Positions 1,559-2,233 of a DNA stretch of 41,028 bases are shown here, piece after piece. The notes under the pieces are model-generated. The model did not search any database. It saw only the letters and a program-made list of their open reading frames with translations, and was not told where the DNA came from. The first letter of the stretch is position 1. Each line of letters begins with the position of its first letter. The position numbers were made by a program, and so were the translations under genes. The DNA is taken from IMG/VR virus record IMGVR_UViG_2660238524_000006; one strand, 5' to 3'. Source of the DNA: a virus. Lineage: Duplodnaviria > Heunggongvirae > Uroviricota > Caudoviricetes.

Positions 1559-2233
1559 TCAGTCTAAGTATTGATGTATTTGTGAAACTTTACCTTTAAT
1601 GGTGTAACCACCATTCAGTTCGATGGGTTTGTAAAGCGGATTCAGTGACAACAGATAGATGTTTGGTCCGTCAATCGCAACTTTTTTTAGTGTTACGTTT
1701 GGCGTTCCTTCCAATTGGATTAAGATTATTTTTCCCACCAGTTCTCTAATGTTACTTGAGCATGGTGTGATCAGCACGGTAGATCCGTCGGGGATGGTTG
1801 GGAGGCCGTTAGAGTTTGTCATCGCATCTCCCTCAACATGCAATAAAAAAGAGTTTTCAGCGGTTTTTGTCATGACATCAACCCAGTTCTTAATACCAGG
1901 AATCTTGGTTACTGGACAACTCATATCCCAATAACCAGCCTGTTCCCACGTTAAAACGGGCAACCGGGCGATGTTGTCACTAATGTAAGGGTACTGATTC
2001 AGACGCAGATCATCGGTTTTATCGTGACCGTCCTTTCCATAAAGAATCCATTCAGGAGATTTGGAAAGCAATTTTGACAGTAGATACAAATTCTCACCGT
2101 CAGGTTTTGAAGAGCCATTTTCCCATTTTGTTACGGATACACGAGATATGCCGATTGCTTTCGCAACCTGCTGTTGGGTTAATCCAACGTCTTTTCGACG
2201 ATTCCGAATACGTTCGCTGATAGTGTTTTTCAT
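1559..2233 (-). CDS. cI-type prophage repressor (XRE HTH + S24 LexA-like domain); start at 2233 preferred, 2275 or 2332 possible
   Basis: HTH segment LTQQQVAKAIGISRVSVTKWENG; C-terminal S24 domain with conserved Lys (TLKKV) but G-D-A-M where the Ser-containing motif is expected. Divergent from the Cro-like gene; start 2233 places the GTAAC-N4-GTTAC palindromes in the intergenic region. Confidence 0.8.
   Translation of the reverse strand: MKNTISERIRNRRKDVGLTQQQVAKAIGISRVSVTKWENGSSKPDGENLYLLSKLLSKSPEWILYGKDGHDKTDDLRLNQYPYISDNIARLPVLTWEQAGYWDMSCPVTKIPGIKNWVDVMTKTAENSFLLHVEGDAMTNSNGLPTIPDGSTVLITPCSSNIRELVGKIILIQLEGTPNVTLKKVAIDGPNIYLLSLNPLYKPIELNGGYTIKGKVSQIHQYLD

Follow-up and report, generated by a model that had tools for sequence, protein, structure and literature searches.

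A CI-type repressor with alanine at the catalytic serine position of its S24 domain in lambdoid prophages of Escherichia coli

The immunity repressors of phages lambda (cI) and P22 (c2) combine a helix-turn-helix (HTH) DNA-binding domain with a peptidase domain of family S24, and exchange of the catalytic serine against alanine in LexA (S119A) or cI (S149A) yields mutants that are not cleaved. Proteins of this fold in which the catalytic residue is replaced are known in MEROPS as non-peptidase homologues of family S24. SOS-blind lambdoid repressors have also been described. The CI of coliphage 186 (Tum) and the CB of N15 (AntC) are full-length two-domain repressors that remain uncleaved, and both phages carry a LexA-controlled antirepressor. 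DicA of the Qin prophage, PaaR2 of CP-933P and GfoR and GtgR of the Gifsy phages occupy the same genomic position and do the same job without a peptidase domain (~135-150 amino acids). From this position DicA, an essential protein, controls dicF and dicB (PMC11481867). PaaR2, a leaderless repressor with partners of the YdaS/YdaT type, shows no response to mitomycin C (PMC8630535), and for the SOS-blind Gifsy repressors, which lack the peptidase domain, the antirepressors GfoA and GfhA are known (PMC3121763). The present contribution deals with a repressor gene at positions 1559-2233 of a stretch of 41,028 nucleotides, in the following termed the window, from the Caudoviricetes record IMGVR_UViG_2660238524_000006 of IMG/VR. 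What is new in this locus is not SOS-blindness as such but the route that apparently leads to it, namely the exchange of a single catalytic residue in a protein that is otherwise intact and closely related to the cleavable repressors of Shiga toxin (Stx) phages. Our literature search, which covered the literature incompletely, returned only non-cleavable repressors that lack the domain, and no natural Ser-to-Ala exchange in a full-length cI.

The repressor shares its HTH and S24 architecture, the Ala-Gly cleavage site and the lysine with lambda cI and P22 c2, and lambda cI is its best match in sequence and fold. It differs from wild type lambda cI in that it naturally carries an alanine, as does the engineered, non-cleavable S149A mutant, and in that a protein of the YdaT family stands at the position of CII. 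Unlike DicA, PaaR2 and the Gifsy repressors it has kept a complete S24 fold together with cleavage site and lysine; with DicA it shares the neighbourhood of ydfA-ydfB-ydfC-dicF-dicB. The likeness to 186 CI and N15 CB with respect to cleavage is predicted from the sequence, and no counterpart of their antirepressors was found in a scan of nine ORFs that flank the repressor gene. Although 186 CI (2fjr) was recovered in the fold search (E=3e-5, 11% identity), the window repressor, in contrast to 186 CI, is close kin of cleavable repressors, from which one catalytic residue sets it apart. The features of the gene are as follows.

1559-2233, minus strand: coding sequence of the CI-type immunity repressor, 224 amino acids, stop codon at 1559-1561 (open reading frame (ORF) list, Pfam, lambda cI 3bdn, PHROG 4)
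2045-2209, minus strand: N-terminal HTH DNA-binding domain, residues 9-63 (Pfam HTH_3 PF01381, 62.6 bits)
1586-1960, minus strand: S24-like C-terminal domain, residues 92-216 (Peptidase_S24 PF00717, 61.2 bits against a cut-off of 23.3)
1934-1939, minus strand: Ala99-Gly100 (GCT GGT), aligned with the scissile bonds A111-G112 of cI, A84-G85 of LexA and C24-G25 of UmuD; kept
1823-1825, minus strand: codon GCG of Ala137 at the position of the catalytic serine, one transversion away from TCG (HMMER and MAFFT alignments)
1685-1687, minus strand: codon of Lys183, aligned with the general-base lysine (K192 of cI, K156 of LexA, K97 of UmuD); kept, in an invariant alignment column

The protein is a two-domain, CI-type repressor with an HTH_3 and a Peptidase_S24 domain. 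It matches PHROG 4 (transcriptional repressor, E=2e-43); in a phmmer search of the PDB the top match was lambda cI (3bdn, E=3e-14), and the HTH domain was matched by the N-terminal domain of P22 c2 (E=1e-12). Foldseek with an AlphaFold model gave lambda cI, LexA and UmuD' as best structural matches. This model is of moderate quality (predicted local distance difference test score (pLDDT) 71.9, low at residues 69-85 and 136-145) and was used for fold assignment only. Its confidence falls below 50 in the loop DAMTNSNGLP (residues 136-145, window 1802-1828), in which the substituted residue lies; as the underlying alignment comprised 24 sequences, the drop may be meaningless.

The sequence-only reading of this DNA had proposed that alanine replaces the catalytic serine while the lysine of the dyad, in TLKKV, is kept, and both statements were borne out by alignment to LexA, lambda cI and UmuD. 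The reverse complement of 1820-1834 reads GAG GGA GAT GCG ATG, corresponding to E-G-D-A-M, and TLKKV (1679-1693) lies 44 residues beyond it. Against lambda cI (3bdn), phmmer paired 'veGnSMt' with 'veGdAMt', 'tFKKl' with 'tLKKv' and 'vQAGmf' with 'eQAGyw'. In a MAFFT alignment of lambda cI, LexA, UmuD and 26 homologues, S149, S119 and S60 of the three reference proteins share their column with Ala137, and the lysine column is invariant. We take these columns to be the catalytic ones because the numbering of the three reference proteins agrees with the established one (cI S149/K192/A111, LexA S119/K156/A84, UmuD S60/K97/C24). At this level no other serine takes the nucleophile position, and the sole Ser or Thr adjoining it is Thr139, the equivalent of which is present in lambda cI (T151). 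As judged by these alignments, the serine nucleophile of active S24 autopeptidases is absent, whereas the S24 fold, the lysine and the Ala-Gly bond are present; by sequence the protein thus belongs both with the CI-type immunity repressors and with the non-peptidase homologues of S24. Since LexA S119A and cI S149A lose cleavage, we infer that the repressor cannot cleave itself. Retention of the Ala-Gly cleavage site had gone unmentioned in the earlier reading.

Ala137 is a fixed allele and neither a sequencing error nor a private lesion. A 31-mer centred on GCG, to which a megablast match has to span the central codon, was found in 682 of 5426 complete E. coli genomes (about one in eight), and its TCG version in none of the 5426, which speaks against a sequencing error. 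The gene itself is present with an intact ORF (at least 80% coverage) in 702 of these genomes, 661 of them at 99% identity or more, 33 at 95-99% and eight at 80-90%. Carriers of the Ala allele include sequence type 131 (ST131; EC958, JJ1887, 81009), Shiga toxin-producing E. coli (STEC) of serotypes O111:H8 and O111:NM, enterotoxigenic E. coli as well as bovine and avian isolates. In a collection of 15 billion proteins the closest relatives fall into five clusters, in each of which the residue was uniform among the members read.

Cluster 1: E. coli and E. albertii, 98-100% identity to the window, Ala, GCG
Cluster 2: E. coli, 89% identity to the window, Ala, GCG
Cluster 3: E. coli, 88% identity to the window, Ser, TCA
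Cluster 4: Salmonella, 70% identity to the window, Ala, GCA
Cluster 5: Enterobacter, 66% identity to the window, Ser, TCG

Every Ser/Ala difference among the five clusters is a single change in the first codon position, and the strand around the cleavage site, 'LPVLTWEQAG.W', is invariant across Ala and Ser clusters alike, as is the lysine. The Ala alleles occur in E. coli, E. albertii and Salmonella and at several integration sites, among them ompW and yccA. The Ser-type allele of cluster 3 is present in eight complete E. coli genomes, compared with about 690 that carry Ala. Three cluster 3 loci were read, and all have lambda-like O/P-type replication genes: a Stx2a prophage of O178:H19, in which the Ser sister allele (88%, same operators) is the repressor (L003, 3928-5168), a Stx2d prophage at yccA in STEC434, in which it has the same role (L014, 2057-3297), and a relative at yccA without stx. 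The yccA site used by the Stx2d prophage of STEC434 is taken by an Ala-type prophage in O111:NM. In 50,697 deposited phage records tblastn detected nothing homologous at more than 60% identity, which means that the Ala allele is absent from isolated phages. More distant homologues, at about 45-52% identity, all have serine with the exception of P0022 of Arsenophonus nasoniae. In this 45% identical protein the motif has become 'PDDKTD' and the cleavage site 'HDMKKW', with 'TIKKL' kept, and it is a case of complete catalytic decay with retention of the fold.

The substitution has not been followed by relaxed selection on the domain. Between the two Ala lineages of clusters 1 and 2, substitution rates at synonymous (dS) and nonsynonymous (dN) sites and their ratio omega (dN/dS) were determined by the method of Nei and Gojobori.

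C-terminal domain, cluster 1 versus cluster 2: dS 0.70, dN 0.040, omega 0.057
N-terminal domain, cluster 1 versus cluster 2: dS 0.53, dN 0.046, omega 0.087
21-residue linker, cluster 1 versus cluster 2: dS 0.27, dN 0.26, omega ~0.96

Purifying selection thus acts strongly on the S24 fold despite the missing nucleophile, and the same holds for the HTH domain. Relaxed selection can be detected by this test, because the linker is near-neutral. By these signs the repressor looks functional.

Loss of the nucleophile is not confined to this lineage. Among 109 relatives, which are the representatives of two-domain size (185-320 amino acids) among the best 150 matches in a library clustered at 50% identity, the nucleophile column holds Ser in 93, Thr in six, Ala in five and other residues in five. 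AG or CG at the cleavage site is found in 62 of the 93 Ser-bearing proteins and in two of the 16 others (Fisher p=6e-5), i.e. 14 of the 16 surveyed non-peptidase homologues have also lost the site; the window repressor differs from them in that it keeps AG and has close Ser-bearing sisters. Nucleophile loss thus appears to recur in the family, in about 15% of the related 50%-identity clusters, and by this comparison the cleavage site is usually lost afterwards. The window repressor still has AG and Lys and would stand early on this path, unless the site is still of use. Where closer homologues bear a database name, it is 'LexA family protein' or 'S24 family peptidase'.

The history of codon 137 was followed in neighbour-joining trees that were built without the nucleophile column and in which all bootstrap replicates were rooted on one common outgroup. 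Clusters 1, 2 and 3 were grouped in 100% of the replicates and the three Ala clusters in 0%; because the Ala clusters never group while clusters 1-3 always do, the trees indicate that the codon changed at least twice. Either Ser-to-Ala changes occurred independently in clusters 1/2 and in cluster 4, or alanine arose once and cluster 3 reverted. Within clusters 1-3, three-way site patterns of 61, 44 and 41 are compatible with one or with two origins of alanine in clusters 1 and 2, and the trees of the N-terminal and C-terminal domains disagree, which suggests recombination.

The surroundings of the gene have the layout of a lambdoid immunity region, with the operators OR and OL, a cro gene in divergent orientation and, in the place of cII, a gene of the YdaT family, as far as can be read from motifs and domain matches. 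Divergent cro, OR and OL and an operator that abuts the start codon are likewise found at the leaderless cI of lambda.

2282-2295: OR-type operator, GTAAC-N4-GTTAC, from a pattern search; common to the five clusters
2234-2247: second OR-type operator, GTAAC-N4-GTTAC, abutting the ATG at 2233; common to the five clusters
1471-1484: OL-type operator, GTAAC-N4-GTTAC, just downstream of the repressor gene and before the leftward ydfA-ydfB-ydfC-dicF-dicB
1531-1555, minus strand: likely intrinsic terminator, a hairpin with U-run directly behind the stop codon (-15.1 kcal/mol, z=-3.8, none of 200 shuffles as stable)
2325-2540, plus strand: divergent Cro-like gene (Pfam P22_Cro, 59.4 bits)
2537-2962, plus strand: YdaT-family gene in the CII-equivalent position (Pfam YdaT_toxin, 40.9 bits)

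The pattern GTAAC-N4-GTTAC occurs exactly three times in the 41 kb, a number reached in none of 100 shuffles, and the sites and their places are the same in all five allele clusters, Ala and Ser. A consensus scan of 1300-2600 gave no promoters. A role of YdaT as CII analogue has been described (PMC8630535, PMC9986795). In the Prokaryotic Genome Annotation Pipeline (PGAP) the same repressor gene starts at ATG 2275 and encodes 238 amino acids ('LexA family protein', WP_000103687.1). The 14-codon N-terminal extension of this model (2234-2275) contains the operator at 2234-2247; since this operator is common to all five allele clusters, the gene probably begins at 2233, and its transcript would be leaderless, like those of lambda cI and PaaR2. 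To the left of the repressor, ydfA, ydfB, ydfC, DicF and dicB match Qin of K-12. In the draft assembly of EC958 (PMC3789825), the integrase/exonuclease genes EC958_1532-1534 are followed by ydaV (EC958_1535), and the repressor gene is not represented in the tables of transposon-directed insertion-site sequencing (TraDIS).

The remainder of the window bears out a further part of the sequence-only reading, which had listed retained DicF and hok, insertion sequences (IS) and a split tape-measure gene as signs of domestication.

360-411, minus strand: DicF (Rfam, above the gathering score)
5006-5772: IS1 insertion with insA/insB ORFs (5060-5757), missing from the relatives L002 and L013
6799-6970, plus strand: sok (Rfam), beside the hok ORF at 6968-7123
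12446-12635, plus strand: STnc100 (Rfam, above the gathering score)
34911-35034, plus strand: STnc490 beside an IS200-type ORF (Rfam, above the gathering score)

The matches that flank IS1 overlap by about 10 bases, as a target-site duplication would give. The tape-measure gene lies in two overlapping frames, 25185-27455 (756 amino acids) and 27442-28398 (318 amino acids). In 99.9% identical relatives it is a single intact gene of 3228 nucleotides, which points to a frameshift in the window. A 1.5-kb cassette with a 349-amino-acid ORF (9929-11457, ORF 10398-11447), missing from L002 and L013, recurs in strain 81009; there it belongs to the ompW prophage, and the gene corresponding to the ORF bears the annotation DNA methyltransferase. 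At 11497-11572, adjoining a tRNA-Arg(TCT), ARAGORN reports a tRNA-Met with CAT anticodon, which the PGAP annotation of relatives gives as tRNA-Ile; it is probably a phage-carried, lysidine-modified tRNA-Ile2.

The window matches the prophage between mtfA/tRNA-Ser and zinT of ST131 (L013, strain 4/0, 2131000-2178000) at 98.8-100% throughout, except for 1463-2530. This exceptional stretch comprises the repressor and cro; its source is the ompW prophage. Whereas zinT forms the end of the window, strain 21319 has the same hybrid starting at ompW. Recombination between two resident prophages of opposite orientation, probably in the form of a large inversion, would account for such a hybrid. The second lambdoid prophage of ST131 encodes at the repressor position a 139-amino-acid protein without S24 domain (L013, 39685-40104), and therefore neither of the two prophages of typical ST131 has an evidently cleavable repressor. 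Damage was also found in other Ala-type prophages: an IS3-family element among the lysis genes in strain 81009, an integrase frameshift and an IS within the exonuclease gene in an O111:NM strain, and a frameshifted Q gene in strain 2014C-3061. Most of the Ala-type prophages inspected are damaged, and the three cluster 3 loci with their O/P-type replication genes look different, a contrast that is suggestive and comes from few loci.

The LexA box CTGT-N8-ACAG occurs once in the window, at 20079, and 37 of 100 shuffles contain at least one such site. It lies inside a late structural ORF (19113-20339, 408 amino acids) upstream of the 405-amino-acid ORF 20946-22163, and lends no support to an SOS-controlled module.

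We consider it probable that the gene codes for a working lambdoid CI-type repressor in a natural SOS-blind, ind- form, in which the S24 fold serves oligomerisation and no self-attack on the Ala-Gly bond takes place. According to this model, a single-base Ser-to-Ala change would have removed the S24 nucleophile, and the repressor would still dimerise and bind OR and OL cooperatively via the S24 fold. PR (cro, ydaT, replication) and PL (ydfABC, dicF, dicB) would thereby stay silent. Self-cleavage stimulated by RecA* would be impossible and the prophage uncoupled from the SOS response. The division inhibitors DicB and DicF and the lysis genes would then not be released by DNA damage, so that Ala alleles would be favoured in the lysogen. 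Once induction is lost, the lytic genes would drift and collect the insertions and frameshifts that are seen here and in relatives, and the immunity cassette would persist, spreading via recombination among resident lambdoid prophages. Mobility of the cassette is suggested by the finding that 1463-2530 alone fails to match the ST131 mtfA/zinT prophage. Operator binding and repression of PR and PL gain indirect support from the purifying selection and the conserved operators, and the essentiality of DicA in Qin likewise speaks for the model.

Several points weigh against this model. For non-cleavage, DNA binding and repression alike, the argument depends on homology and on what has been published for LexA S119A and cI S149A, and the confidence of the structural model is low precisely at the motif loop. 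The Ala-Gly site and the lysine are kept, although so few relatives without serine retain AG or CG; this could reflect recent loss of the nucleophile or a remaining role of the site. The association of alanine with decay comes from a handful of loci read by eye. Finally, the Ala lineages have diverged to a dS of 0.6-0.7, and past saturation for Salmonella; such deep divergence would suggest that the Ala allele is carried by transmissible phages, which need some route of induction.

This last point leads to an explanation to which we assign a minor though not negligible probability, namely that the repressor is indeed non-cleavable and the phage is nevertheless inducible, via an unrecognised small antirepressor of its own or one supplied in trans by another prophage, after the example of 186 (Tum), N15 (AntC) or Gifsy (GfoA/GfhA). 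Purifying selection on Ala alleles across deep divergence, in three host groups and at several sites, would be easier to understand if the phages were transmissible. Many small early ORFs are without known function, and antirepressors that act in trans between prophages are documented (PMC3121763). However, none of the nine ORFs that flank the repressor gene has an antirepressor match in PHROGs, PGAP names none in three near-identical prophages, and the sole LexA-like site is at chance level. An antirepressor-dependent prophage, which the sequence-only reading had named as one of two alternatives, therefore found no support in the window. The absence of homologues above 60% identity from the deposited phage records also argues against transmissible Ala-type phages. 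Decidedly less probable is that the Ala repressor is still a substrate and is cut in trans, in mixed oligomers with a Ser-bearing homoimmune repressor or by another S24 protein, which would make induction dependent on the partner. UmuD cleaves intermolecularly, and Kim and Little are said to have found in 1993 that an S-to-A LexA is cleaved intermolecularly by a C-terminal fragment; both would favour trans cleavage, as would the identity of AG site, lysine and surrounding strand in all Ala and Ser clusters. Operators are common to both types, and mixed oligomers are likely. Trans cleavage is, however, inefficient for LexA and cI in published work, the partner is usually absent given eight Ser-type genomes compared with about 690 of Ala type, and constraint on the whole domain accounts for the conservation without a role for the site.

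Neutral decay in a dead prophage, with the C-terminal domain as a relic of a gene on its way to a pseudogene, has a marginally lower chance still. The window prophage is certainly defective (IS1, frameshifted tape measure, lack of a DnaC-like gene), and P0022 of Arsenophonus demonstrates that motif and AG site can be lost completely. In contrast, the C-terminal omega of 0.057 between Ala lineages, the near-neutrality of the linker only, the intact ORF in 702 genomes and the conserved operators are not what a relic would show. For the same reasons alanine cannot be read as a decay mark of this one prophage, where the earlier reading had placed it: the allele is fixed in 682 genomes and is found in three clusters down to 70% identity. 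Self-cleavage through another nucleophile, such as Thr139 in 'AMT' or an activated water, is hardly credible. Threonine does occur at the nucleophile position itself in six of the 109 relatives, but in the window repressor this position is Ala and not Thr, and lambda cI has the same neighbouring Thr (S149-M150-T151), yet its S149A form is non-cleavable according to the published literature.

Beyond the SOS-blind repressor favoured above, we offer a more speculative idea, which we regard as doubtful. The nucleophile codon might act as an evolutionary toggle within one homoimmune repressor family. Phages that respond to SOS, among them converters for Stx2a and Stx2d, would have become SOS-blind residents through repeated single-base Ser/Ala switches, perhaps with changes in the opposite direction as well. 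Since operators are common to Ala and Ser types, an Ala allele in residence would then lock immunity in a dominant, damage-proof manner, and homoimmune Stx2 phages could neither superinfect nor be induced via SOS. The kept Ala-Gly site might at the same time expose the Ala protein to trans cleavage by a Ser-type partner.

If the repressor is SOS-blind, the ompW prophage of ST131 (the Phi4 region of EC958) and the related prophages of O111 STEC and Salmonella would not be directly inducible by DNA damage, and quinolones or mitomycin C would fail to induce them through repressor cleavage. This bears on the tolerance of lysogens to SOS-inducing antibiotics and on the taming of prophages, as one base change would end inducibility and leave the repressor intact. 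It also points to a problem of annotation, since the labels 'LexA family' and 'S24 family peptidase' are given to proteins that lack the catalytic serine, as do about 15% of the related clusters. For the biology of Shiga toxin, a co-resident Ala allele is expected to act dominantly and to prevent induction of Stx2a and Stx2d phages, because its closest Ser-bearing relatives, the repressors of these phages, use the same operators.

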